Shown here: positions 4,161 to 56,521 of the stretch, one piece after another | How positions within the stretch are numbered: the stretch's first letter is position 1 | How the letters are laid out: the number at the start of each line of letters is the position of its first letter | Origin: a virus | Taxonomy: Duplodnaviria; Caudoviricetes | IMG/VR virus record: IMGVR_UViG_3300020152_000005 | Location: 1 to 56,521 of that record | DNA: 56,521 nt | Strand: one strand, 5' to 3' | Notes under the pieces: model-generated | The model's input: the letters and a program-made list of their open reading frames with translations, nothing else | Databases searched by the model: none | Told to the model about the DNA's origin: nothing | Made by a program: the position numbers and the translations under genes

Positions 4161-4213
4161 GGTTCGGTGCTGCTCTCGAGGGGAAGTATACTGCGCTTGC
4201 GCGCGCAAGTCAA
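4161..4213 (-). promoter_or_regulatory. Near-consensus sigma70-like promoter with operator-like palindrome
   Basis: TTGACT(4213-4208)-N17-TATACT(4190-4185)-N7-GAGAGCAGCACCGAACC; perfect palindrome CTTGCGCGCGCAAG at 4196-4209. Confidence 0.85.
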
Positions 4214-32242: not shown

Positions 32243-32882
32243 TCAGCTTCAGCGCGAGCTCCTGCGCCATCTCGAGCGCTTCCGGGTCCTCGAGCAGCGC
32301 GCGCAGTGCCGGGTCTTCGTCATGCCCGGCCGAGCCGCCGCCGTCGCGCAGGTCGACGATCGTCTCAGGTTCGCCGCGGTTCAGGCGCTCGAGCTTCGAG
32401 CCCTCGACGATCGCGCGGATCATGGCGTGCGGGCTGATCTTCTCCGGTGACGTGCGCAGCACGTTCAGCACGTTCGCGCCGAGCGTCTGCAGCGCGGTCG
32501 CGAGGCCGATCTGCCGGCGCGCCATCTCCTGCACCTCTTCCTTCTCGGCTTCCTCGCGCCAGCGCCTGCGCTGCTCGTCGACGTGACCGTCCCACGCGGC
32601 CGCGCGTTCGGGCCATCCGTTCTTCGAGCTCCAACGCCCGAAGTAGCCGGGTGCGCGCTCGCCTCGAGGCAGCTTCCGCCCGGTCGCAACCTCGTACGCC
32701 TTGTCGATCGAGCGGTCCTGCGGCAGCAGGTCGCGGTAGGCGACGAATCCGACGAATTGCTGAGCCGTCTCGCCGGGCTGCAGCTCCCACGGCTGCGCGA
32801 CGCGCGGCGTCGCCTTCGGCGCGGCCTTCTTCACGCGCGCCTTCTTCGTGCTCGTCGCCTTCGCCCTCTTCGGCTTCGTCAT
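32223..32882 (-). CDS. terS: Terminase small subunit
   Basis: PWELQPGET..F..Y, WSSKNGWPERAAAWD; directly upstream of TerL. Confidence 0.8.
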   Translation of the reverse strand: MTKPKRAKATSTKKARVKKAAPKATPRVAQPWELQPGETAQQFVGFVAYRDLLPQDRSIDKAYEVATGRKLPRGERAPGYFGRWSSKNGWPERAAAWDGHVDEQRRRWREEAEKEEVQEMARRQIGLATALQTLGANVLNVLRTSPEKISPHAMIRAIVEGSKLERLNRGEPETIVDLRDGGGSAGHDEDPALRALLEDPEALEMAQELALKLNAARGR

Positions 32883-34363
32883 CGGCGCGCCTTCTTCTTC
32901 CGAGGCTTCGCGTCCTCGAGCTCAGGCTCGAGGCCGAGGCGCTCGAGCTGCTCGAGCGTCGCTGCGACCGCGCCCGGTGCGTAGTCGATCGAGCAGCTGA
33001 GCCGTCCGGTCTGCTCCGCTGCGACCGCAACAAAGCCGCCGCCGGCGAAGAGATCGAGCACGACGTCGCCCGGTGCGGTGCTGTTCACGATGCCTCGAGC
33101 GGCGAGCGCTGCAGGCTTCTGCGTCGGGTGCAGGTAGTCGTCGCGCGGGTCGCGCTGAATCTCCCAGAGGTCAGACGTGCCGGGGTTCGGGATCAGCAGC
33201 AGGCTGCCCTTCTCGGGGAACGTCACGCGGCGGATCTTCGCCTTGTCAGGGACCTTCGCGCTCAGGAAAACCTCGACGCCCTCGTCGAGCAGGACCGCGA
33301 GCCCTGCGATGTTGTCGAGCGCGATCGGCGTCGTCGCGCCCTTGCCGCGGCGCGGCGTGATGCGCCAGACCGTCGACTGTGTCCGGTCGCCGTAGTGCTT
33401 CGGCGAGACGCCCGCGCGGCCGCCGTAGAATGCCGCCTCGTGCTGATAGTGGAACGTCGACCGACCGAGCACGAAACTCTCTTTCGCCCAGATCAGGTAC
33501 TGACGCTCCTGAAAGCCTGCGTTCTCGAGCGCGCGCTCGAAGGCGCGGCGGCCGTCCTTGTCAGCGTGCCAGACGTAGACGGCAGCGTCCTGCGCGAGGT
33601 GCGGGCTACCGGCGCGCAGCGCGAGCTCGAGCAGCTCCTGCAGCGCTCGGCCGTGCAGGTCGTCGTTCTGGACGCGCTTGTGCTTCGGGCTCGCCTCGTA
33701 CTCGACGCCGTACGGCGGGTCGGTGAAGAGCAGCTGCGCCGTCGTGCCGTTCATGACGCGCGCGACGAGCTCCGGGTCGCGGCTGTCGCCGCAGCCGATG
33801 CGGTGCGCGGCTCCCGGCGTCGTGATGCTCGGGACCGTCCAGAGCTGGCCGCGGTCGGTGCCCCACTTCTGCACGAGCCGGTCGGCGACGGCTTCCCACG
33901 GATCGTCGCTTACCTCGCTGACGTCCGCGGTGAAGCTGCTCAGGTCGGCGAGCAGTTGATCGAGGTCGTCAGCGTCGTAGCCGGTGCCGCTGAGGCTGCT
34001 CGTCTGCTCGAGGATCTCGGCGAGCACCTGCGCGAGGCGCTCGTCGCTGTACGTGCCGAGGTCGGCGATCCGGTTGTCGGCGATCAGAATCCTGAGCGCG
34101 GTCGCGTCGTCGACGTCGAGGATCTCGGCAGGCACTGAGCTCTCGCCGCGGTGCGCGGCCGCGAGGTAGCGGTGATTGCCGGCGAGGATGTATCCGGTCC
34201 GCTTCTGCACGAGGATGCGACCGTACCATCCGTTGACGTCGATCGATTCGACGATCGCGCCGACGTCGCCCTGCTTCGGGTTCTTCGGGTGCGGCCGCAC
34301 TTCGTCGAGCGCGACGTCGCGCAGCTCGCTCTTCACGCGTCGCATGTTGCCGGTCTTCGTCAT
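32879..34363 (-). CDS. ParB-N domain fused to an N4-C/N6-A DNA methyltransferase (beta class)
   Basis: PHPKNP, ILAGNHRY, IADNR; TDPPY precedes HPTQKP and DLFAGGG. Confidence 0.92.
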   Translation of the reverse strand: MTKTGNMRRVKSELRDVALDEVRPHPKNPKQGDVGAIVESIDVNGWYGRILVQKRTGYILAGNHRYLAAAHRGESSVPAEILDVDDATALRILIADNRIADLGTYSDERLAQVLAEILEQTSSLSGTGYDADDLDQLLADLSSFTADVSEVSDDPWEAVADRLVQKWGTDRGQLWTVPSITTPGAAHRIGCGDSRDPELVARVMNGTTAQLLFTDPPYGVEYEASPKHKRVQNDDLHGRALQELLELALRAGSPHLAQDAAVYVWHADKDGRRAFERALENAGFQERQYLIWAKESFVLGRSTFHYQHEAAFYGGRAGVSPKHYGDRTQSTVWRITPRRGKGATTPIALDNIAGLAVLLDEGVEVFLSAKVPDKAKIRRVTFPEKGSLLLIPNPGTSDLWEIQRDPRDDYLHPTQKPAALAARGIVNSTAPGDVVLDLFAGGGFVAVAAEQTGRLSCSIDYAPGAVAATLEQLERLGLEPELEDAKPRKKKARR

Positions 34364-38548: not shown

Positions 38549-38796
38549 CAGACGCCGACGCGCTCGAGCAGGACGTCGACGCGCTCTGCCGGCGATCCGT
38601 CGCGGTCGCTGACGCGCACGTAGTCGAGCAGGTGATCGCGCACGCTCTGCTCGCGGTCGGCCGGGTCGCTCGGCAGGTTCTCCGGGTCGGCGTCGAGGAT
38701 CAGCTGCGTAGCCTCGTCGTAGATCGCGTCTTCCTGCGCCGTCAGCTCGTCGAGCCGGGTGTAGAGCTCGATCAGGCGTGCTCTCGGGTTGCTCAT
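38548..38796 (-). CDS. Hypothetical acidic protein
   Basis: Coupled ORF. Confidence 0.6.
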   Translation of the reverse strand: MSNPRARLIELYTRLDELTAQEDAIYDEATQLILDADPENLPSDPADREQSVRDHLLDYVRVSDRDGSPAERVDVLLERVGV

Positions 38797-39059
38797 TCGT
38801 CGTCTAGCTCCGGTGTCGGGTTCTCGCCGGCGTCGCAAAGCGCCCACGCGATCGCGCTGCGCTCGCGCCTCGAGCGGCCGAGGTAGCGTGCGATCGCGCC
38901 AGCCTCAGACGCCTTCAGGTGCCGGTCGCCGTTCTCTGTCTCAGTGATCCGCGGTCGCGCGAGCCCGATCGCGTCGCCGAGCTCTTCCTGCGTCAGTCCG
39001 TGTTCCTCGCGTAGCTCGCGCAGCGCGCGACCGATCGCCCGCCTCGTCGACCTGTTCAT
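38793..39059 (-). CDS. XRE-family HTH regulator
   Basis: LRELREEHGLTQEELGDAIGLARPRITETENG. Confidence 0.9.
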   Translation of the reverse strand: MNRSTRRAIGRALRELREEHGLTQEELGDAIGLARPRITETENGDRHLKASEAGAIARYLGRSRRERSAIAWALCDAGENPTPELDDE

Positions 39060-39367
39060 GAGATCCGCACCCATGCGCGGTAGTGCCCGCACCGCGGGCA
39101 GGGTTCGTCGCTCGGTCGGTTCTTCGCCTCGAAAACGCGGCCGCAATCGAAGCAGTAGCCGCTTTCCGGCCCGGCCTCGACGATCGCCTCGATCTGACCG
39201 ACCGCGCTCTGGGCCTCGTCGGCGGTGCGCACGATCGACCGGATCGCCTCGAGCGCGTTCTGCCGGTGCCTCAGCGCGCGAGCGTCGGCCTGCAGTCGCT
39301 CGCGGTACTCGACGAGCGCGTTGTTGATCCGCCGCGCGCTCGAGGCTGCTTCGCTCGTGTTGCTCAT
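39056..39367 (-). CDS. Coiled coil plus zinc-ribbon protein
   Basis: CFDC...CPRC. Confidence 0.7.
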   Translation of the reverse strand: MSNTSEAASSARRINNALVEYRERLQADARALRHRQNALEAIRSIVRTADEAQSAVGQIEAIVEAGPESGYCFDCGRVFEAKNRPSDEPCPRCGHYRAWVRIS

Positions 39368-43572: not shown

Positions 43573-45009
43573 TCAGCCGCCGAAGGAAGCGTCGGCACTC
43601 GGCCCGGCCGCGATCGGCTCGAGCGGTGCGATCGGTGTAGAGCTCGCGAGCGCGTAGACCTCGGCGTCGTGCCCCGGACCGTCGTCGAGCAGGCGCAGGG
43701 GCATGACGAGCGCGTAGTGCAGATCCTGCGGCGCGTCCGTCTCAGTGATCTGCGGCTCGAGGCGAATCGCGCGCTCCGGTGTCGTCGCCTGCAGTCGCAC
43801 GCGCGGCGTCGGCAGCAGCCGCAGCAGCGCGCTGATGTACGTCAGGTTCAGGCCGAAGACGATCGGGTTGCCCTCGCGCTCGCACTCGATCGACGACGTC
43901 GCCGCAGCCTCGAAGCTCGAGCACGCGAGCACGATGCGCTTCTCTTCAATCCTGACCGCTGTCCGGTACGTGTTGTCGTTCGCCGCCGGCGCGATCTGGC
44001 GCAGCCGCTCGAGCGCTGCCTGCTTATCGAAGTAGACGACCGACGCTTCACTGCTCGGCAGGTTCTTCGGCAGCACCTGCTCGTATGCCGGGTACGGTCC
44101 CTCGATCGCGTCGCACGAGATCGACGCGCCCGGTCCGTCGATCCTGATCCGCGGCCGCGCGCGCGTCAGCACCTCGCGCTCGATCTGCGGCGGCTGCGCC
44201 TCGCCGGGCTGCCCTTCCTTCGGCGGCACCTTCGTACGCGGCAGCGGCTCCCTATCGCTCGGGCTCGCGTAGAAGCGCAGCGGCGTGCCCGGCTCGCGCC
44301 AGATGGAGAGCGCCGCCTTGATCAGGTCCGGCGGTACAATGAGCTCCTGCTGCTCGGGTACGCTCAGGTCGGCCGTCTCGACGAGATAGAGCCGGTGCCC
44401 ATTCGTGCCGCAGATCGCCGCGAGCCCGACGCCGGTGCGCTTCAGGCAGACGCCGTTCAGGATCGGCCGGCTGATCTCATCGCTCGCGCACGAGATCGGC
44501 CCGGCGAAGACCTGCGCGAGGCGGTTGCGCGAGATCCGGGTATCGATGCCGCCTTTCTCCGGTACCGTCGCCGTCCACTTCTCGTACTGCTCGGCGACGT
44601 CCTGCCCCGCTGTCATCTCGGCGAGCGCGATCGCGGACGTCGAGCTGCGCAGCACGAGGAACGGCCGGTGCTCGCTCGTGCCGAGCTTCAGGTCGCCGCG
44701 CTCGAGCTCGAGCTCGTCGTCGCTCTGGCTCTTCACTGCTGCCTCGAGCTCGGCGAGGCCGATCAGCGCGCGGCCCGGCGTCGTCGTCTTGACCGTGTCG
44801 AGCTCGACGCTGATGCCGGCGCACCACCTGCCGAGGTTGAAGCCGCGCAGCTCGAGGTATTCCCTGTCGCCGGTCGCGGTCGCGCGTACGCGCGTCGTGA
44901 CCTGCAGCGTGCGCTCCATCGGCAGCGTCAGCCGAGCCGGTGTCTTGATCAGCGTGCGAAGCTGCCGCAGCGCCTCGCGTAGCGCTTTCCTGTTGACGGT
45001 GATCTGCAT
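43573..45009 (-). CDS. dnaN: DNA polymerase III beta sliding clamp homolog
   Basis: SRPILNGV, GTNGHRL, IEGPYPAYEQVLP, FGLNLTYI, LVMPLRL. Confidence 0.9.
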   Translation of the reverse strand: MQITVNRKALREALRQLRTLIKTPARLTLPMERTLQVTTRVRATATGDREYLELRGFNLGRWCAGISVELDTVKTTTPGRALIGLAELEAAVKSQSDDELELERGDLKLGTSEHRPFLVLRSSTSAIALAEMTAGQDVAEQYEKWTATVPEKGGIDTRISRNRLAQVFAGPISCASDEISRPILNGVCLKRTGVGLAAICGTNGHRLYLVETADLSVPEQQELIVPPDLIKAALSIWREPGTPLRFYASPSDREPLPRTKVPPKEGQPGEAQPPQIEREVLTRARPRIRIDGPGASISCDAIEGPYPAYEQVLPKNLPSSEASVVYFDKQAALERLRQIAPAANDNTYRTAVRIEEKRIVLACSSFEAAATSSIECEREGNPIVFGLNLTYISALLRLLPTPRVRLQATTPERAIRLEPQITETDAPQDLHYALVMPLRLLDDGPGHDAEVYALASSTPIAPLEPIAAGPSADASFGG

Positions 45010-46761: not shown

Positions 46762-47186
46762 TCCATCTCCAGATCCAGAAGTGAAACGTCGACCGCGCTC
46801 AGCGGCGGGTCGTGATCGAAGAAGCCCGGCGGCGGATCGAAGTTGTATCTGCTCGGGTTCTCGTGACGATGCTGTAGCCGCAGCATCGCGCCCCAGACGT
46901 CGAGGTAGGCGTCGTGCCGGTCCTGCGCCTGCACGCTCGCCTTGAAGTTGTCGTAGTCGATCCGGTCGACCGCGCGCAGCATCGCGGCCGCGAGCCTCGA
47001 GCGCGTGACCGTTGCGCGGAAGAGGTAGTCAGCCTGCGGCGTCTTCCGCGCACGGATGCGCGGCCCGCGCGTGCCCGCGAAGGCGCGTTCGATATCGCCC
47101 TTCACGCGAGCGCGCACGAGCAGCTTCTCGCTGTCGTCGCGGTCCGCGACGATCGAGATCATCGCGTCGTTCAGGAAAACCCACAT
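46758..47186 (-). CDS. Conserved phage protein
   Basis: MWVF..SIV..LLVRAR..DY.FR..IDYDNFK pattern. Confidence 0.75.
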   Translation of the reverse strand: MWVFLNDAMISIVADRDDSEKLLVRARVKGDIERAFAGTRGPRIRARKTPQADYLFRATVTRSRLAAAMLRAVDRIDYDNFKASVQAQDRHDAYLDVWGAMLRLQHRHENPSRYNFDPPPGFFDHDPPLSAVDVSLLDLEME

Positions 47187-48028
47187 CAGAGCGCCTCGGG
47201 TGAAAAGGTGCTGACGACCATCCGGTCTTCGGCGACGTCGCCGCTGCTCGGAATGTCGGCGTCGAGCAGCACGAGCTGCTCGAGGATCATCGTCAGGTCG
47301 CCGGCGAATTCGTCGTAGCCGGGTCCGGCCGCGCTGAGCTCGTTGCGCGCGAGCGCCAGCAGCTGCCGCGCTCGAGCTCCGGGCCGCTGGCTGATGTCGA
47401 TCAGGCCCTCGGGTACGGGCTCCGGTTCGCGCGCGAGCTCGCGCACGTGCGCCGCGGTGATCGACGCCTGCTGCTCGCGTGCAAGCTGCTGCTGCTTCCG
47501 CTTCGGCAGGCGCGCCGCCTTGAACGCTACGCCCGGTGCCATCAGGCCGGTCGCGAGCCTGAAGCGCAGATCCTCGACGAGCCCGGTCAGGCGCAGCAGC
47601 TTCTTCAGGCGCTTGCCGTCGACGCCTAGCTGCTCGCCGATGTCGCGCAGCGTGATGCCCGGCACCTTCAGCAGGCGCTCGGCCGCCTCGAGCTCGTCGA
47701 CGATGTTCCTCTCACGCGTCAGGTTCTCGCTCATTGCGATCGCCTTCGCGACGTCGTCGCTCGTGCCCGGCGGCAGCACGAGCGACGGCACGGCCTTCCA
47801 GCCGAGCTCGCGCGCGCAGCGAATGCGGTGCTTCCCTGCGTCGATCCGGTAGCCGCCCTCGCGCTCGGTCAGCACGACGTTCTGCAGCATGATCCCGGTC
47901 GACTGCAGGTTGCGCAGCAGCGACGCGCGCAGGTCGACGTGATCCGTCGACGCGATCAGATCGAGCGGTACGTCGCGGCGCTCGCCGGCGATCGGCCCTT
48001 CAGCGAAGAGCAGCGTCTGCTCGCTCAT
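47186..48028 (-). CDS. ParB/Spo0J-like protein
   Basis: YRIDAGKHRIRC..LGW..VP, MSENLTRE, followed by an HTH. Confidence 0.85.
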   Translation of the reverse strand: MSEQTLLFAEGPIAGERRDVPLDLIASTDHVDLRASLLRNLQSTGIMLQNVVLTEREGGYRIDAGKHRIRCARELGWKAVPSLVLPPGTSDDVAKAIAMSENLTRERNIVDELEAAERLLKVPGITLRDIGEQLGVDGKRLKKLLRLTGLVEDLRFRLATGLMAPGVAFKAARLPKRKQQQLAREQQASITAAHVRELAREPEPVPEGLIDISQRPGARARQLLALARNELSAAGPGYDEFAGDLTMILEQLVLLDADIPSSGDVAEDRMVVSTFSPEAL

Positions 48029-49035: not shown

Positions 49036-49101
49036 GGTTCGGTGCTGCTCTCGGGTACGAAAATGCGACCGACCGGGCTCGAAAGCAAGCCCGGTCGGTT
49101 C
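49036..49101 (-). promoter_or_regulatory. Promoter with GAGAGCAGCAC leader, overlapping a hairpin
   Basis: TTGCTT-N17-CATTTT-N7-GAGAGCAGCACCGAACC; stem CCGACCGGGCT/AGCCCGGTCGG. Confidence 0.55.
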
Positions 49102-49107
49102 GGGGGT

Positions 49108-49650
49108 TCAGAAGCTCGGGTTCCGCTCGTCGCGGCGGCCGCGCACGAGGCCCCACGTGCGACCGTAGAGCCACGCGCCAGACTTCCGGCGACGCCAGAA
49201 GACGACCGTCTTGCCCTGCGCGTCCTGCGCTTCGATCCGGCGGTAGCTGTCGCTGATCTTCGTGATGCGACCCGCCGGGTAGTAGTCGCCGTTGAAGCCG
49301 TAGCTGACCTCGTCGCCGACCTGCGGCGCTTCGATGACGTCGAAGCGCGGCGAGCGGCCCTGCGTGTCCGTCGCGAGGTAGCGGACCGGCACGTCTTCCG
49401 GCGTCGGCGTCGCGGCTGCCGTGCGGATCAGGTCGAGCGTGCTCGGGCGGTACGTCCAGTCGATCTCGGCCGCCATGACGCGAGCGTAGAGCTCGTCGGC
49501 CTGCTTCGCGAGCTCCTGCGCCTGCTCGAGCGTCTTCAGGTCGTTGCGCGTGACGACGGTCGCGCCGAGCGCCGCCGCGATGTCACGAGCCTCGGTGTAG
49601 TCGGTCGTCGTGTGGTCGACGCGGTTGCTGCGGGTCAGGAAGTAGGTCAT
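49108..49650 (-). CDS. Hypothetical protein
   Basis: MTYFLTR start with CCGGAGAACGG RBS. Confidence 0.75.
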   Translation of the reverse strand: MTYFLTRSNRVDHTTTDYTEARDIAAALGATVVTRNDLKTLEQAQELAKQADELYARVMAAEIDWTYRPSTLDLIRTAAATPTPEDVPVRYLATDTQGRSPRFDVIEAPQVGDEVSYGFNGDYYPAGRITKISDSYRRIEAQDAQGKTVVFWRRRKSGAWLYGRTWGLVRGRRDERNPSF

Positions 49651-49675: not shown

Positions 49676-49742
49676 GTGCTGCTCTCGAGGTACAAGGTAA
49701 ACCCTTCCGCTTGCGCCCGCAAGGGGCAAGAAAAAGCCCGGC
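49676..49742 (-). promoter_or_regulatory. 67-bp terminator/promoter cassette, copy 2
   Basis: TTGCGG-N17-TACCTT-N7-GAGAGCAGCAC; 66/67 identical to 2815-2881. Confidence 0.8.
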
Positions 49743-49753
49743 CGAGGCCGGGC
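49729..49753 (-). terminator. Rho-independent terminator after the lipoprotein gene
   Basis: GCCCGGC-CTCG-GCCGGGC-TTTTT. Confidence 0.8.
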
Positions 49754-49786
49754 TCTCTCTCCCCGCTTTGGCCCGCCGCGCCGGGG

Positions 49787-50869
49787 TTACGGCCGAGCGG
49801 CGAGCCGGAAGACGTCGCCCTGCCGATACGAGCCATTGCAGAGCGGGCCGCTCGAGACGTACGCCTGCTCGGCCTCGAGCCACTCGAGCACGTGCCCGGC
49901 CGAGCTCAGTCGGTCCGGCACAAGCTGCCGGCCGCTCTCGAGCTCGTGAGACTCGAAGGGGATCGTCGCCGTGTCGCCCGCTTCCCACGTAAGCGCGGTC
50001 AGGTTCTGCACGAATTTGATGTCGCGATCGGGCAACGCGGACGGGCTCGGCGACGCCCAATACTCGACGGTAACGGTGCCGGTGACGTAGATCGAATCAG
50101 CAGCCGACGCGCGCACCGCGTCGAAGCAGCGATACGCGACGTCGAAGGTGATCGCGCTCAGGTCGCGGTACGAGCTCGCCGGCACCTGCCGCTGCACACT
50201 GCCGACCGTCACGACGATGCGGCCGGTGTCTTCCGTCGCGACGTCGAGCGTGCCCGCGTCGATCGAGACGGTGAAGCTGTCCAGAGCGTTGCCGTGCTCG
50301 TCGCGTACGTTCGTGACGAGGCTCGCGAGCGTGCTCGGATCGGTGCCCGCGACGACGTCGACGCGCGCCGGGAAATCGAACGTCGCCGGCGCGCCCGGCA
50401 GCGCGGTCGCGAAGAACGTGTCGAAGACCATCGGCGCACCTGTCTCGGGATCGACCGCGCGCGCTTCCATGCGGCACTCTCCCGCGCGGCCGCCGAGCTC
50501 CCAGAGATCCTTCGCGCGCCCGATCGTGTCGGTCACTGCAGAGCCGGCGAACGGACGGCCGCAGCCTTCCTCGACGACGACGAAATTCACGACGACGCCG
50601 GGGACCGGGTCTTCGTTCACCATCAGGCTCGCCTGCGGGCCGACCATGCGCAGCGCGCCGGTGATCTCATTCTGCACGACCTGCACGCCGAGCGGGTCCG
50701 GCAGCGTCGTCTCGACGTAGCCGATCTGGCCCTGCCCTTCGATGATCGACATGCTGAGCACGCCGTCGACGGGCTCGACGGGCGGCTCGGTCGGGCCACC
50801 CTCGCCGCAGGCGCTCAGCGCCAGCACGAGCAGGACGGCCGCGGTGCGGCGGGTGTAGGTGCGCGTCAT
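49787..50869 (-). CDS. Lipoprotein with Ig-like domain
   Basis: Lipobox LSA-C; GQGQIGYVETTLPDPLGVQV, PVPGVVVNF, AVTDTIGRA..WELG. Confidence 0.85.
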   Translation of the reverse strand: MTRTYTRRTAAVLLVLALSACGEGGPTEPPVEPVDGVLSMSIIEGQGQIGYVETTLPDPLGVQVVQNEITGALRMVGPQASLMVNEDPVPGVVVNFVVVEEGCGRPFAGSAVTDTIGRAKDLWELGGRAGECRMEARAVDPETGAPMVFDTFFATALPGAPATFDFPARVDVVAGTDPSTLASLVTNVRDEHGNALDSFTVSIDAGTLDVATEDTGRIVVTVGSVQRQVPASSYRDLSAITFDVAYRCFDAVRASAADSIYVTGTVTVEYWASPSPSALPDRDIKFVQNLTALTWEAGDTATIPFESHELESGRQLVPDRLSSAGHVLEWLEAEQAYVSSGPLCNGSYRQGDVFRLAARP

Positions 50870-50950
50870 CTTCTCTCTCTCCGGGCTCTCAGGTAGTCGG
50901 GTACTGCGCGTTCTCGACCATCGCCTATTCCACTTTCCAGCGCAAGGCCC

Positions 50951-51967
50951 TTACTGCAGGCGCAAGCGGCGGTCCGGGCCAGTCAGCTCGACGAGCTGCG
51001 CGTTCTTCGCCAGCCTCGAGAGCACGCGGTCGATCGCCCATCCGGCTTCGCTGTCCTGCAGCGCCTGCTCGCGCAGCTCGGCGAGCCTGAAGTTGCTCGT
51101 GACGACGGTCGCGCGACCGGCGCGCTCTTCGGCGATCGTCGCCATCGTCTCGATCGTGAATTCGGTCCAGCGCGTTGTACCGAGGTCGTCGAGCACGAGC
51201 ACGTCGGGTGCGGTGCAGCGGCGCACGATGTCAAGCGCGCTCTCGTCGCTGCTGTCGCTGAACGTCGCGCGGATCTCGAGCAGCAGCTTCGGCGCGTAGA
51301 CGTAGCGCACGTCGCGACCGGGCTCGAGGCCGTCGAGCAGCAGCTGCCGCACGATCGATACTGCGAGGTGCGTCTTGCCGTTGCCCGGCGCGATCCGCTG
51401 GCCGGGTCGCCGGCTGCTCAGGTAGAGCCGGCGGTTACGATCGCCGGACCTGATCGCGTTGACGAATGCGACCGCGGCGTCGTACGCGTGCCGGTCGTGC
51501 TCGAGGCTGAAGCTCTCGAAGGCTGCGCTGCCGTACTCGTCGACGTTCACGCCGGCGAGCTCGAGCAGCTCGAGGATGCGCGCGGGTCGATTCGCAAGGT
51601 GCGCGCGGCGTTCCTGCTCGGCTTCCTCGCGCGCGAGCTGCTCGAGCTCGCGACGCTCGGCGACGATCTCGCGCTGGCACTCGTCGCACGGATGCGCCGC
51701 GTGCAGCTTGCCGTCGATCAGGTACGCGCCGACCGTGTTCGGTCGCTCGCGTTTCCGCAGCTCGCACTGCGGGCAGGTTACGCGGCCGTCGCACGTGTTC
51801 GGCTCGCGCGGCCCGATCTCAGCCTTTGCCTGCTCCTGCAGCGCCGGCGGAAGGTCCGCCAGTGTCGACGCTGAGCTCGTCGAAGGGGCTGCTCCCGCCT
51901 CGCGTCCTGTTCGTTCCCTGTAGCGTCGCGCCAGCTCGGCGACGTCGACCTTCTCCGGTTCGCTCAT
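50951..51967 (-). CDS. DnaC/IstB-like helicase loader ATPase
   Basis: CxxC pairs, PGNGKTHLA, LVLDDLG, VTSN, DRVLSRL, GPDRR. Confidence 0.92.
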   Translation of the reverse strand: MSEPEKVDVAELARRYRERTGREAGAAPSTSSASTLADLPPALQEQAKAEIGPREPNTCDGRVTCPQCELRKRERPNTVGAYLIDGKLHAAHPCDECQREIVAERRELEQLAREEAEQERRAHLANRPARILELLELAGVNVDEYGSAAFESFSLEHDRHAYDAAVAFVNAIRSGDRNRRLYLSSRRPGQRIAPGNGKTHLAVSIVRQLLLDGLEPGRDVRYVYAPKLLLEIRATFSDSSDESALDIVRRCTAPDVLVLDDLGTTRWTEFTIETMATIAEERAGRATVVTSNFRLAELREQALQDSEAGWAIDRVLSRLAKNAQLVELTGPDRRLRLQ

Positions 51968-52673
51968 CCGTGCTCTCTCCTGTTGCATCGCGTGCGGCCG
52001 TCTCGACGAATCGCCGGAAGAATCGGCCGTTGTAGTCGTGCCCTTCAGCTGCGTACCTCTGCAGCGCGGTCGCCATCGCCTGCGGTCGCTTTTCAGCCGG
52101 CAGGCTGCCCCACGCTCGCGCGTCGGTGCCGTTCGGTCCGTAGAGGCCATGCAGCCCGACGAGCGTCGTGTCGCTCGCGCCGCAGGCCGTCGTGAAGAGC
52201 TCGAGCGCCGCCCGGCCATCCTCGCCGAGCCACGTCTCGAAAGCCCTCGCGCGGTCTGATGCGCTGATCGGTTCCGTTCGGGTTCCCTTACGGTTCATGG
52301 GGTCCCGCTGCGGGACGGCAGGGGTCCCGGCGCGGGACGGTAGGGGTCCCGCTGCGGGACGGGGGGGTCCCGCTCTGGGACCCTCGTCGGTCACGAGCTC
52401 GAGCTGCTCGAGCGCCGTGATCGTGTAGCTCGTCGACGTCTGCTGCCCGCCGTCGCGGAAGCGCTGCTGCCGAGCGATGACGCCGTCGCGCTCGAGCTCG
52501 TCGAGGTAGCGGAGTATCGTCGACCGGCCGAGGCAGGTCATCTTCTGCAGCCGGCGCAGGCTCGGCCAGCAGACGTGATCGTGATTCGCTGCGTCTGCGA
52601 GCGCGACGAGCAGCAGCTTCTTCCCGCTCGGAAGCTCCTGCTCGAAGGCCCACGTTATCGCTTGAAGGCTCAT
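51819..52673 (-). CDS. Replication initiator with N-terminal HTH (lambda O-like position)
   Basis: KLLLVALAD...CWPSLRRL...STILRYLDELE; contains iterons; precedes the loader. Confidence 0.88.
   Translation of the reverse strand: MSLQAITWAFEQELPSGKKLLLVALADAANHDHVCWPSLRRLQKMTCLGRSTILRYLDELERDGVIARQQRFRDGGQQTSTSYTITALEQLELVTDEGPRAGPPRPAAGPLPSRAGTPAVPQRDPMNRKGTRTEPISASDRARAFETWLGEDGRAALELFTTACGASDTTLVGLHGLYGPNGTDARAWGSLPAEKRPQAMATALQRYAAEGHDYNGRFFRRFVETAARDATGESTDERTGEGRRRRAGATLQGTNRTRGGSSPFDELSVDTGGPSAGAAGAGKG
52299..52383. repeat. Four palindromic iterons, probable replication origin
   Basis: GGGGTCCCG-N3-CGGGAC units at 52299, 52321, 52343 and 52364 (last imperfect); spacing 22/22/21. Confidence 0.85.
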
Positions 52674-52897
52674 GCTCTCGGGGTAGTGCTCTCGGTTGCT
52701 GCGGCGGCTTGCGCAGCTGCGCCGTCGAACGCGCGCAGCGACTGCTCGAGCCGCTTCTCAGCATCGCGCGCCTCGTGTACGACGGCAAGCGCCGCCGCGC
52801 CGAAGCCTACTGCGGCCGCGATCGCGGCCGTGATCGCCCAGAAGCCGGCACCGATCAGCACGGCTTCCCAGAGCGCGTAGCACCTGTCAGGCTCCAT
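52670..52897 (-). CDS. Small membrane protein
   Basis: 75 aa with a long hydrophobic segment; GAGG RBS. Confidence 0.6.
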   Translation of the reverse strand: MEPDRCYALWEAVLIGAGFWAITAAIAAAVGFGAAALAVVHEARDAEKRLEQSLRAFDGAAAQAAAATESTTPRA

Positions 52898-52910
52898 CGC
52901 CTCTCTTCTC

Positions 52911-52939
52911 TTGCGTCGGGGATCTGGCGGTCCTATCCT
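52911..52939 (+). promoter_or_regulatory. Antisense sigma70-like promoter
   Basis: TTGCGT(52911-16)-N17-TATCCT(52934-39) in an intergenic gap. Confidence 0.6.
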
Positions 52940-52945
52940 TTCACC

Positions 52946-53033
52946 TCAGCCGCAGTACCGCTCTCCGGCGGTAGGTGCGTGCTCTCCTGAACGGCCTGCG
53001 GCGCTTCGGCGTCCGCAGGCCGTCTCAGTTTCT
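52946..53033 (+). ncRNA. Predicted small regulatory RNA (about 85 nt)
   Basis: Lies between that promoter and a + strand terminator; stem TACCGC/GCGGTA with a CUCC loop, then GUGCGUGCUCUCC. Confidence 0.5.
52987..53033 (+). terminator. Plus-strand terminator hairpin
   Basis: ACGGCCTGCGG/CCGCAGGCCGT stem with C-UUCG-G loop, then TTTCT. Confidence 0.65.
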
Positions 53034-53036
53034 GCC

Positions 53037-53720
53037 CTACTTGATCGAGAGCCGCACGCCGCGGTCGTTCAGCTTCGCGAACGGCAGAACCTCGCCGGCC
53101 TCGAGCGCGGCGCGCACGCGCGCCTTGTCGATCTCCTGCTCGACTGCGTACGCCTCGCACGCCGGCGCGACGTAGCTCTCGACGATGTCGAGCAGCGTCG
53201 CGTTCGGTGCGGAGATCGTGATCGTGACCTTGCGGAAGCGCAGCGGGACGTCGGTCGCCGCCGTGCCCTCGACGATCTCGAGCGGCTGCTTCCCGCCGTT
53301 GCCGACGACGCTCGTGCGGTAGCGCAGGCCCTCGATCGTCTTCTTGCCGAATGCCTGCATGAAGACGAGCAGCCGCTCGGTCAGCTTCTTCGCGGCGTTC
53401 TCGTCGACGCGCGCGCGGTCGGCGATCCGCTGCGCTTCGTTCGCGCGCACCGCTGCTCGAGCTCGCAGCTCCTGAATCAGCGACGCGTAGCGATCGACCT
53501 TCTCGCTCAGGTCGCCCTGCGTGTCGCGCAGCCAGCCGTCGAGGATCGTCTCGATCTGCTCGTCGGTGACGTCGCCGCCCTGCTCGACGAGCAGATCCTC
53601 GAGCGCGAGCAGATCCTCGCCGATCTCGAAGAGCGTGCGGTTGCGCGGCCGCGCGGCGAGCTCTTCCGCCGTCGCAGCGGGTACGCCGGCGGTGCCGGTC
53701 TTCGTCGTCGTCTTCGTCAT
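53037..53720 (-). CDS. Siphovirus Gp157-family protein
   Basis: TLFEI, EKVDRYASLI, NEAQRI, EIDKARVRAALEAG, RLSIK. Confidence 0.85.
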   Translation of the reverse strand: MTKTTTKTGTAGVPAATAEELAARPRNRTLFEIGEDLLALEDLLVEQGGDVTDEQIETILDGWLRDTQGDLSEKVDRYASLIQELRARAAVRANEAQRIADRARVDENAAKKLTERLLVFMQAFGKKTIEGLRYRTSVVGNGGKQPLEIVEGTAATDVPLRFRKVTITISAPNATLLDIVESYVAPACEAYAVEQEIDKARVRAALEAGEVLPFAKLNDRGVRLSIK

Positions 53721-54007
53721 GCCTCTCTCCGTTGTGGTGCTCTCGTCGGCTCGTCGAAAAGGCGAGCGTGCGGAATGCCGATCGCCTTCGCTACCGCGCG
53801 CTCGAGCCGGTCACTGCGCGCGGTCCCTCTGATCACCTGCCGTACGGCCTGCGGGCTGACGCCCTCGCGGTCGGCGAGCGCGGCCGCGTTCAGCTTCGCG
53901 AGCTTCACGATCGCGATGCGCTTGTCGGCGAGCGTTAGGCCCTCGGCGTCGAGGATCGCCTGCACGGACGCGTCCGGCAGCCGGTGCTTCTTCGGTCTGG
54001 GGCTCAT
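53717..54007 (-). CDS. Ner/Cro-like HTH regulator
   Basis: AALADREGVSPQAVRQVI...ERAVAKAIGIP..LF. Confidence 0.75.
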   Translation of the reverse strand: MSPRPKKHRLPDASVQAILDAEGLTLADKRIAIVKLAKLNAAALADREGVSPQAVRQVIRGTARSDRLERAVAKAIGIPHARLFDEPTRAPQRREA

Positions 54008-55110
54008 CAGTCGATCCCTTCGTCGTAGTCTCGGTCGTCGCCTAGCGTCTCTTCCGCTTCGGCGTTGTAGCGCTCGGCGAGCTCGCGGTTCTCGAGCTTC
54101 TGCACGAGCTCGTCGTAGAGGTCCCGCGGCACGTCTCGCGAATGCGCGATCGGCGGCTGCGCCTCGCTCAGAAGCAGCTTGACCGCGTCGTGCGTCCATC
54201 CGGCCTTCGTCGCGATGGCCCAGAGCCGCTTCTCCTGCGCCGGGCTGATCGGCCGCTCGTCGCCGCCGCGGCCCTGCGGCTCGCCGCGGCCGCGGGGCTG
54301 CGGCTGCCCGCCCGGACCGGCGTTCGCGCGTCCTGCGCGATCCTGCGAGCTCTGGCGGCCCTTCTCGCCGCCCGCCTGACCCTGTCGAGCCTGCAGAGCG
54401 TCGTAGAGCGCCTTCGCGGCGTCGCGCGCGTAGTCCTCGAAGCTGTTGCTCTTCTTCCGGGTCGTCTCGTCGGCGAAGAAGCGCGTCGCCTTCCACCGGC
54501 GGCCGCGGAATTCGAGCTCGAGGTCGTCGGGGAAGCCGGCATTGACGAGCGGGCTCAGGTAGTCGAGCGCCTTCTGATGCGCCGGGCTGCGCTGCTTCTG
54601 TCCGCCGCCGCTCGAGCGCTGCTGCCCGCCGCCGCCCTGCCGGCGCTGTTGCTGCCCGCCGCCACCACCGCCGCCACCGCTCGAGCGCTCCGGGTCGTCG
54701 CCGGTCGAGATCAGCAGGTTCTTCAGGTAGAAGTATTTGATCCCGCCGGTCATCGCCTTGTAGACGCCCTTGTCCTGCCCATCCTGCCCCTGACCGAGCC
54801 AGCTGCCCTGCAGCTCGAATCCCGTCTCGAGGTCGATCAGCCGCCAGCCGAGCTCGAGCGTCGTGATGCCGCTCTCGCCGTTCTTGCCGGCGGGTCGATA
54901 GCTCTCGCTGCGCGCTTCCCAGATCATCGCGAGGCCGTACTGCGCGAGCTTCGAGCGCAGGTGCGTGACGAGGTCTTCCTCTTTCACGTAGTTGTAGCGG
55001 AAGTGCTCGTTGTAGCCGGCCTTTGCGATCGGCTCGAGGCTGTCGATCAGGTTTGAAAACTTCGTCGCGAGCTGCTGTCGCAGCTCGAGCTCTGTCGCCT
55101 GCGCGGTCAT
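54007..55110 (-). CDS. ERF-family single-strand annealing protein
   Basis: KAGYN..RYNY, GQDGQDKGVYKAMTGGIKY, ISTGDDPE; Gly/Gln-rich linker. Confidence 0.9.
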   Translation of the reverse strand: MTAQATELELRQQLATKFSNLIDSLEPIAKAGYNEHFRYNYVKEEDLVTHLRSKLAQYGLAMIWEARSESYRPAGKNGESGITTLELGWRLIDLETGFELQGSWLGQGQDGQDKGVYKAMTGGIKYFYLKNLLISTGDDPERSSGGGGGGGGQQQRRQGGGGQQRSSGGGQKQRSPAHQKALDYLSPLVNAGFPDDLELEFRGRRWKATRFFADETTRKKSNSFEDYARDAAKALYDALQARQGQAGGEKGRQSSQDRAGRANAGPGGQPQPRGRGEPQGRGGDERPISPAQEKRLWAIATKAGWTHDAVKLLLSEAQPPIAHSRDVPRDLYDELVQKLENRELAERYNAEAEETLGDDRDYDEGID

Positions 55111-55133
55111 CTGGGGTGCTCTCCGGGGTGCAA

Positions 55134-55186
55134 GGTTCGGTGCTGCTCTCGGGTGCTACTATCGCGGGCTCAGCTTTCGCCCGCAA
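55134..55186 (-). promoter_or_regulatory. Promoter with GAGAGCAGCAC leader
   Basis: TTGCGG-N17-GATAGT-N7-GAGAGCAGCACCGAACC. Confidence 0.65.
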
Positions 55187-56521
55187 GCCCATACTTTGCG
55201 ACGAGCCGGTCGGCGAGCGCGTTCAGGATGCTGACGTTCGCCGTCACCTCGCGGCCGTCCAGTGTCGCCGCGCTGATCGCGCGCTTGCTCTCGATCAGCT
55301 CGACGAGCTCTTCGTCGATCGTGCCGCTCGCGAGCATGTACCACGCGGTCACGCTGTCGGCCTGTCCGATCCGGTGCAGACGGTCTTCCGCCTGATCGTG
55401 CGTCGCCGGGTTCCACGCGAGCTCGAGGAAGAGGCTGTTGCTCGCCGCGCCCTGCAGGCCGTCAACGCCAGTGCCGCCGCTCTTGATGTTCGCGACGAGG
55501 ATGCGCGCGCTCTCGTCGCGGTTGAAGCGCTCGACGGCAGCGACGCGGTCTTTCAGGCTGACGTCGCCGTAGATCAGCGGCGCGTTGTCGAACGTCGACG
55601 CGATCGCCGTCACGATCTCCTGATGCCACGCGAAGACGACGAGCTTCTCGGCCGCGACGAAATCGCGAATCCACGCCTTCGCCTGCGCCAGCTTTCCCCG
55701 CGCCGCGAGCTTCTTCAGCGCGTTGAACCTGACGAGCTGCTCAGCGGCGCGCGCTCTCATCTCGGCGCTCATCGCGCGCTCGCGCTTGCGCTGCTCCTGC
55801 TCGTCTGCCGGCAGGCCCGCGATCTCGAGCAGGAAGGCGCGGTCGGCGGCCGCCTGCTCGCCGCACCATCTCGCGACGTCGGCCTCGGCGCGGTCGTACT
55901 CGTCGCGGTTGTCGATCTCGACGCTGAACGGCTCGCGCACCTTCGCCGGCAGCTGCGGCATCGCGTCGGCCTTCAGACGCCGCACGTAGCACCGCTCGCG
56001 CAGTAGCGCGTTCAGCTCGAGCAGGCGCTTGTTGCCCTCGGCCTTCGCGACGTACGCGTACCGGCCCTTGAATTCCGAGCGGCCGCCGAAATCGTCGATC
56101 CGACCGAGAAACTCGAGCTGCGTCGCGAGGTCGGCGACGCGGTTCACGAGCACGGTGCCGCTGAGGCCGAGCCTGAGCTCGACGGGCTCGCCGATCGTTC
56201 GGGCAACCTCGCCCTCGCCCTTCTTCTTCGGCTCGAGCACGCCGCTCGCGAGCGCCAGCGCGTACCGCGTGCGCAGCGTCTTCGGGTTGCCGATGTTGTG
56301 AATCTCGTCAGCGACGATCGCGCGCAGCTTGACGCGCGACGCGATCGCCTCGGCGTGTGCGTAGACGATGTCCCAATTCAGCACGAGCAGGTCGGCGGCG
56401 GCGTACGGATCGAAGAGCTCGCCGCCGGTGCTTCTGCCCTCGAGCACGCGCACGGTTCTGCCGGGCAGCCACTGCCGCGCCTTCGCGGCCCATTGCAGCT
56501 TCACGCTGGCCGGGCAGAGCA
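55170..56521 (-). CDS. SNF2-family helicase, C-terminal part (begins at 899 across the junction)
   Basis: IVADEIH, LSGT..N, RRLK, KLVVFA, GTGVDGLQ, WNP..QAEDRLHRIGQ. Confidence 0.93.
   Translation of the reverse strand, partial: LCPASVKLQWAAKARQWLPGRTVRVLEGRSTGGELFDPYAAADLLVLNWDIVYAHAEAIASRVKLRAIVADEIHNIGNPKTLRTRYALALASGVLEPKKKGEGEVARTIGEPVELRLGLSGTVLVNRVADLATQLEFLGRIDDFGGRSEFKGRYAYVAKAEGNKRLLELNALLRERCYVRRLKADAMPQLPAKVREPFSVEIDNRDEYDRAEADVARWCGEQAAADRAFLLEIAGLPADEQEQRKRERAMSAEMRARAAEQLVRFNALKKLAARGKLAQAKAWIRDFVAAEKLVVFAWHQEIVTAIASTFDNAPLIYGDVSLKDRVAAVERFNRDESARILVANIKSGGTGVDGLQGAASNSLFLELAWNPATHDQAEDRLHRIGQADSVTAWYMLASGTIDEELVELIESKRAISAATLDGREVTANVSILNALADRLVAKYGLAGES
56395..56521. repeat. 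Terminal direct repeat, right copy
   Basis: Identical to 1-127. Confidence 0.95.

Follow-up and report, generated by a model that had tools for sequence, protein, structure and literature searches.

A candidate OOP-like convergent antisense unit at the entrance to the replication module of an uncultured soil phage

What is a plus-strand transcription unit doing in a phage genome whose genes all read the other way? The question is raised by positions 52911-53033 of IMG/VR record IMGVR_UViG_3300020152_000005, the complete record of an uncultured soil phage (56,521 bp, 69% G+C; hereafter the window), where the gap between a Gam-like gene and a 75-aa gene (gp75) appears to hold a promoter, a short RNA and a terminator on the plus strand. 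An earlier note on this DNA had described the genome as all minus-strand, which holds for the 56 genes of a rough gene call and for three more added by hand, and had proposed that the plus-strand RNA is a trans-acting master regulator of many phage transcripts. The analysis reported here favors, with a probability of about one half, a local rather than a genome-wide role: the unit would act as a convergent antisense brake, in the manner of OOP/pO, on a lambda-like replication module. That the promoter, RNA and terminator form a real plus-strand unit is likely, judging from its sequence. Its features are as follows.

52911-52916, plus strand: -35 hexamer TTGCGT, preceded by C like the CTTGCG of the phage's promoter family, and in the same register as five minus-strand promoters
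52934-52939, plus strand: -10 hexamer TATCCT, 17 nt after the -35
52948-53033, plus strand: predicted RNA of ~86 nt, its start inferred from the distance to the -10 and its end from the T-run
52948-52983, plus strand: stem-loop 1, with a CUCC loop at 52963-52966 (unpaired probability >0.9); the first GCUCUCC is at 52960-52966
52974-52986, plus strand: 'seed' GGTGCGTGCTCTC (RNA: GGUGCGUGCUCUC), overlapping the second GCUCUCC (52981-52987)
52987-53028, plus strand: terminator stem, a long G+C-rich hairpin with a UUCG loop (53005-53008) and an 11-bp perfect inverted repeat (I16)
53029-53033, plus strand: T-run TTTCT, directly after the extended stem

The promoter named in the earlier note, TTGCGT-N17-TATCCT, is present at 52911-52939. 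Read by eye, it shares one register, TTG...N17...nAnnnT, with the five minus-strand promoters, and the segment after its -10, TTCACCTC (52940-52947), resembles the family's TGTACCTC or TCCCCTC. A weight matrix was built from the -35 and the -10/discriminator regions of the five minus-strand promoters, and both strands were scanned (~113,000 positions). The training sites scored 23-26 bits and the plus-strand site (52910) 20.3 bits, and the next best untrained site on either strand reached 10.2 bits. When training sites were left out, the plus-strand site was the top untrained site in 4/4 runs, at 15.6-21.0 bits. The same scan found no family-type promoter on the minus strand of the gap. Likeness to the family is limited to the -35, the -10 and the discriminator (by eye, the spacer matches that of the most similar promoter at 7/17 positions), which argues for function and against recent duplication. 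The plus-strand promoter is well beyond chance, and in silico it gives the unit its own sigma-70-type promoter opposite the early operon.

The RNA, taken as 86-91 nt, folds into two hairpins at -53.9 kcal/mol (z = -5.3, with 0/200 shuffles as stable; z = -6.75 when 52948 is taken as the first base). The first displays CUCC in its loop at 52963-52966 and the second is the UUCG hairpin followed by TTTCT at 52987-53033, both as originally described. In a custom search of both strands for single hairpins followed by a T-run, the terminator hairpin, at -32.4 kcal/mol, was the strongest of 28 sites (22 minus, 6 plus). In the minus-strand reading, GAGAGC and no T-run comes after the stem, and the clear minus-strand terminators of this phage do have T-runs (e.g., 49734, 2873, and 22280). 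The predicted product is an RNA of <100 nt with its own intrinsic terminator hairpin. The plus-strand open reading frames (ORFs) 52975-53175 and 52911-54182 have no Pfam match, and no Rfam family matched the region at gathering score, permissive matches being at the level of the hairpin only.

The second body of evidence is the position of the unit. On the minus strand the gene order is helicase, ERF, a helix-turn-helix (HTH) protein, Gam, the gap, the 75-aa gene, an O-like initiator and a DnaC-like loader:

54007-55110, minus strand: ERF recombinase
53717-53950, minus strand: 77-aa HTH protein, two genes from the unit (phrog_769 'transcriptional repressor', E 1e-7)
53037-53720, minus strand: Gam / Sipho_Gp157-like gene, the upstream neighbor (phrog_253, E 5.8e-20)
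between 52897 and 53037: Gam-gp75 gap, 139 nt between the Gam-like gene and the 75-aa gene
52670-52897, minus strand: gp75, a 75-aa gene of unassigned function, hydrophobic in its N-terminal half
51819-52673, minus strand: O-like replication initiator (12 PHROG replication-initiator families, best E 2.7e-18; HTH_36)
52299-52381, inside the O-like gene: four 18-nt iterons GGGGTCCCGC..GGGAC at 22-nt spacing, each an inverted repeat (repeat families D2/D4)
50951-51967, minus strand: DnaC-like helicase loader (phrog_50, E 1.5e-41), its start picked by ribosome-binding site (RBS)

The iterons within the O-like gene make a lambda-style origin probable. In the lambda record (J02459), O begins at 38686, four 18-bp iterons lie at 39034-39118 and cII is just upstream. 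The iteron word also occurs inside the O-like genes of five other viral contigs, in two of them twice at 22-nt spacing. The unit lies upstream of the iteron-bearing O-type gene and the loader gene and is transcribed away from them. One extra gene intervenes, gp75, which matched nothing in Pfam or PHROG and whose stop overlaps the start of the O-like gene. At its far end the RNA does not overlap the coding end of the upstream gene: it is predicted to end at 53033, 3 nt short of the Gam stop codon (53037-53039).

In the reading that we favor, the promoter of the phage's own sigma-70-type family, facing the ERF-HTH-Gam early operon, would produce the ~86-nt RNA up to its intrinsic terminator. The replication genes would be fed by read-through from the promoter at 55187, a dependence that is plausible because the gap has no family-type minus-strand promoter and the hairpin no minus-strand T-run. 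The RNA would be perfectly complementary to any early transcript reading through the Gam-gp75 spacer, and the resulting duplex of ~86 bp, cuttable by double-strand RNases, could uncouple the replication genes or lower their expression. The convergent promoter, by firing, may also damp transcription into the origin region.

Several observations weigh against this reading. Held-out true members of the promoter family scored poorly (1.9-8.4 bits) in the leave-out runs, which shows the smallness of the training set: the matrix was trained on just five sites, two of them nearly identical. The built-in promoter/terminator scan of 50000-56521 found nothing; its consensus rules are too strict for a phage of 69% G+C. 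The T-run is short and, with 4 T in 8, fails the stricter built-in rule of 5 T in 8. Lambda oop overlaps 52 nt of cII (PMC5869508), whereas the unit is wholly intergenic and covers no gp75 ribosome site. In the metatranscriptome (a single run, in the form of contigs only, at 2-4x depth, with 15/30 bins covered), eight stretches within the 7-kb early region have RNA contigs, among them 52680-52928 over gp75, and no contig covers 52948-53033, a result that is silent either way for an 86-nt RNA. Small RNAs are usually lost in such libraries. The strain in DNA run X2 differs by 17 substitutions over 49713-54573 (4.9 kb), with 0 in the gap against ~0.5 expected, which is uninformative.

Relatives also weigh on this side. 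The window has no blastn match among 50,697 phage records, and its TerL (large terminase) is at most 44% identical to that of any of them; there is no close cultured relative. Single-protein scans of viral contigs with Gam and with the O-like protein returned none. Relatives of Gam were obtained by a search with a 4-sequence alignment (an 11-sequence alignment was too diverse), which found 10 viral, 7 metagenome and 3 genome loci, 28-49% identical; PF05565 was found on 19/19 Gam homologues. Apart from the X2 strain, relatives reach at most 47% identity in Gam. Twelve Gam loci were examined (the frame of L002 was not followed, and L020 was dropped as the same contig as L003). By eye, the hairpin after Gam has a gene-strand T-run in the distant relatives L003, L004, L007 and L009/L010, five Gam loci have no gap after Gam, the others show hairpins on the gene strand, and an opposite-strand unit was seen in none of the distant Gam relatives examined. 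The five O-like loci that share the iteron word (29-36% identical) show a coding gene immediately ahead of O, without a gap. Given these same-strand terminators, absent gaps and coding genes before O, the unit is not an old, widely shared feature. 

Word searches gave no closer relatives. The seed 19-mer had 0 exact matches in the viral contigs. A 17-mer of the leader described below had 19, and these records were treated as unrelated, a Gam homologue being present in 0/5 of those tested. Thirteen complete viral records of 54-61 kb each have a single occurrence of the 17-nt leader pattern, which in them probably marks a site conserved within an unrelated group of phages.

The remaining explanations turn on words that the gap shares with other parts of the genome. 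Five exact copies of a leader, GAGAGCAGCAC, lie on the minus strand at 2815, 4167, 49042, 49676, and 55140, each ~7 nt past a -10-like hexamer with a (C)TTG... -35 at 17-nt spacing; the earlier note had correctly recognized these shared leaders, with three of its coordinates off by one. The ribosome-site word GAGAGCAC, mostly found before start codons or in 5' leaders, has 12 minus-strand copies and 2 plus-strand copies, a roughly tenfold over-representation on the minus strand (~1 expected, by a rough composition estimate), and GGAGAG has 21 and 1. The last three letters of GAGAGCAC, beyond GGAG, are not known to pair with the usual 16S 3' tail. A recurring cassette, CCGAACCGGAGAAC, precedes several start codons (49650, 49023, and 3189). 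On its minus strand the gap shows every part of the leader layout (word, 7-nt spacer and GGAGAG), and it carries orphan GGAGAGC copies at 52987 and 52966 that no start codon follows.

The alternative that survives best, possible if rather unlikely, is that there is no functional plus-strand RNA: the gap would act on the minus strand only, and the promoter match would be coincidental. The hairpin would then end or stabilize the ERF-HTH-Gam transcript, or be a processing site, and GAGAGCACGCACC, the 7-nt spacer and GGAGAG would form the 5' untranslated region of the 75-aa, O and loader genes, which could be a standby ribosome site, a site for a CsrA-type protein, or a decayed leader-RBS cassette. 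The layout of the gap indeed equals that of the five true leaders (leader word, 5-14 nt, GGAG), and leader-like words lie mostly on the minus strand (8/9 one-mismatch matches, in addition to the GAGAGCAC counts above). The minus strand is structured too (z = -3.8), and GGA occurs in its fold both in a loop (GGAGAG) and in unpaired stretches; a CsrA-type leader would have several A(N)GGA motifs that overlap the ribosome site, some of them in hairpin loops. The same-strand terminators after Gam in distant relatives fit this account as well, as does a hairpin directly before a leader copy at 49089. A very weak hint is added by the RNA contig over gp75, whose end at 52928 is ~7 nt downstream of a possible minus-strand extended -10, TGaAAGGAT (52943-52935); contig ends at 2-4x depth do not establish RNA starts. 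What a purely minus-strand function leaves unexplained is the 20.3-bit plus-strand promoter with the right 17-nt spacing, and also the T-run on the plus side of the hairpin in a phage whose minus-strand terminators carry T-runs. Nor does it account for GGAGAG words without a start codon after them, or agree with a gap that has no family-type minus-strand promoter.

Could the RNA instead act in trans, its two GCUCUCC motifs and GGUGCGUGCUCUC pairing with the shared leader and with many RBSs to silence genes globally? The pairing itself can be reproduced: the seed pairs with the leader GAGAGCAGCACC through one bulged G at -20.7 kcal/mol and with an 11-mer of the sliding-clamp gene at -21.0 kcal/mol. 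The matches beside start codons are real (clamp 11 nt, portal 10, ERF 9, loader 9, capsid 9), with perfect matches of 8-11 nt at the start regions of ERF, O, loader, clamp, and portal. One of the two anti-Shine-Dalgarno motifs lies in the open CUCC loop and the other partly in the linker, and their target word GAGAGCAC is over-represented as stated. However, the seed is mostly base-paired, lying in the 3' arm and base of stem-loop 1 plus a 3-nt linker, and the opening cost of its 13 nt is 9.8 kcal/mol.

The outcome depends on the control. Target scanning was approximated by duplex energies plus opening costs. Thresholds of -16 and -18 kcal/mol gave saturated counts (57 and 56 of 58), and only the mean of the top 10 and the leader scores were used. 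Duplexes of the whole 86-nt RNA with 50-nt start regions gave unrealistic energies of -50 to -60 kcal/mol and saturated counts, and were discarded except for the leader figure against plain shuffles. For exact matches to the 59 start regions, 0/300 plain shuffles had as many at a length of at least 8 or at least 9 nt. Among 300 shuffles that keep both GGAGAGC words, and with them the Shine-Dalgarno (SD) complement, 3.3% did as well at a length of at least 8 nt, 9.7% at 9, 7.7% at 10, and 25% at 11. Of the phage's own 59 upstream regions, 12-37% have as many words in common with other start regions, and the top-10 duplex energy to start regions was equalled by 274/400 SD-keeping shuffles. Complementarity to the RBSs reflects the phage's own ribosome-site word and is not beyond SD-keeping controls; the earlier note had itself cautioned that part of the match is the GGAGAG site. 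Pairing with the leader is marginally beyond these controls: the 12-mer pairing was equalled by just 3/400 SD-keeping shuffles, and the mean pairing to the five 17-nt leaders by 9/400, as well as by 4/58 real upstream-region antisense controls.

To call the plus-strand RNA complementary to other minus-strand sites is, by definition, to say that the gap, read on its minus strand, has words in common with them. A further same-strand copy of such a word accounts for the leader match just as well, since the 11-mer GAGAGCACGCA recurs unchanged in the clamp start region. The target list also mixes early and late genes without a pattern. Nor does RNA-based immunity have an obvious setting: none of the 27 proteins scanned was an integrase, and the phage has an HTH regulator along with palindromic sites (see below). 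A global trans-acting role is accordingly improbable. The earlier note had listed pairing no better than SD-keeping shuffles as evidence against its master regulator of many RBSs, and this is the result for the RBSs and very nearly that for the leader. More generally, claims that an RNA is complementary to many RBSs need controls that keep the phage's own ribosome-site word. We give slightly less credence still to a variant in which the RNA would be a phage-wide translational timer, its CUCC loop and GUGCUCUCC pairing with GAGAGCAC(G/C) at RBSs and with the leader GAGAGCAGCACC; if it were true, the extended ribosome-site word would be the address label of the RNA, and a single 86-nt RNA would adjust early and late genes together.

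The premise of a missing repressor, for which a regulatory RNA was to substitute, is itself weak. A 14-bp palindrome, CTTGCG-NN-CGCAAG, overlaps the -35 of 4/5 minus-strand promoters, three copies being exact and one having a single mismatch:

2849-2862, 4196-4209, 49710-49723, and 55174-55187: palindrome sites at minus-strand promoters

The palindrome is absent at the plus-strand promoter and at the promoter at 49089. It looks like a putative operator for a dimeric regulator, for which the 77-aa HTH protein (53717-53950), encoded two genes from the unit, is a candidate. The promoter at 49089 (49063-49110) is unusual in another way: its -35 region lies inside a perfect 11-bp inverted repeat that is followed by TTTT overlapping the -10 (CATTTT), so that a single element combines terminator and promoter, with a leader copy immediately after it.

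Least probable of all is that the plus-strand -10 TATCCT and the minus-strand extended -10 TGaAAGGAT compete as mutually exclusive promoters and the RNA product is unimportant: the sole A+T-rich patch of the gap (52931-52943) does read as a -10 on both strands, and the gp75 contig ends ~7 nt past the minus-strand hexamer, but the candidate on the minus strand lacks a -35 and the family matrix did not pick it up, contig ends at this depth cannot reveal RNA starts, and the strong fold and terminator suggest an RNA made to last.

Some further features of the genome were recorded. A terminal direct repeat (1-127 / 56395-56521) is exactly 127 bp long, a size that suggests assembler overlap of a circular or permuted genome rather than true physical ends, and at the right end of the window the helicase ORF runs off. 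The sliding-clamp-like protein (478 aa, 43573-45009) matches phrog_947 over residues 1-440, and its residues 175-323 also match a RusA-like resolvase family, which may reflect a domain insertion or a fused ORF called in error. The gene at 32879-34135 encodes a DNA methyltransferase whose N-terminal domain is ParB-like, and a separate ParB-like protein is encoded at 47186-48028.

How does the unit compare with known systems? The c4 RNA of P1/P7 is a phage RNA that uses base pairing to repress production of a phage protein (PMC8546580). The RNA predicted here is similar in size. Unlike c4, which is reportedly 77 bases long and cut from a longer transcript, the unit has its own promoter, and there is no immunity setting here. 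The c4 family RF01695 (gathering score 45 bits) had 0 matches in the window; the control genomes had none either. Small RNAs that mask the SD with C-rich loops are exemplified by the staphylococcal RsaE-type RNAs; similarly, the CUCC loop and the second CUCUCC in the linker could pair with GGAG-type ribosome sites, but pairing with start regions is here no better than in SD-keeping controls. Among permissive Rfam matches the best, which lies over the hairpin region, was to the Burkholderia small RNA candidate Bp2_287 (RF02424); it scored 26.7 bits against a gathering score of 70 and shrank to 16.1 bits, covering the hairpin alone, with less flank; this likeness is hairpin-level only.

The closest analogy is lambda OOP, which the earlier note had mentioned as a short antisense RNA next to the replication genes. 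Lambda oop runs leftward from pO, which lies in the start of O, to the tO hairpin (PMC5869508), and convergent pO activity lowers pR transcription and affects ori-lambda replication (PMC3985674). In lambda, and by prediction here, a dedicated promoter and a dedicated terminator hairpin delimit a short RNA that is transcribed counter to the early operon, pointing away from the origin. Its place is between an upstream early gene and an O-type initiator gene that holds four 18-nt iterons and is followed by a helicase-loader gene. The oop region, too, has a predicted fold of a 5' stem-loop followed by a terminator. In lambda, oop reportedly directs RNase III-dependent cleavage of the cII-O mRNA, the counterpart of the duplex cleavage considered above. 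The differences are that an extra 75-aa gene stands here between the RNA unit and O, that the upstream gene is Gam-like and no lysogeny regulator, unlike cII, and that, unlike in lambda, the genes are all on one strand, with the integrase result as given above. A two-sequence alignment of oop and the unit gave 30 identical columns and suggested no meaningful likeness.

If the RNA is made, the lambda solution of a small convergent antisense unit at the entrance to an O/iteron/loader module would recur here without sequence homology. Its recurrence in an unrelated, high-G+C, one-strand soil phage would argue that origins of this type need the arrangement for their function, and that it is not an accident of lambdoid history.

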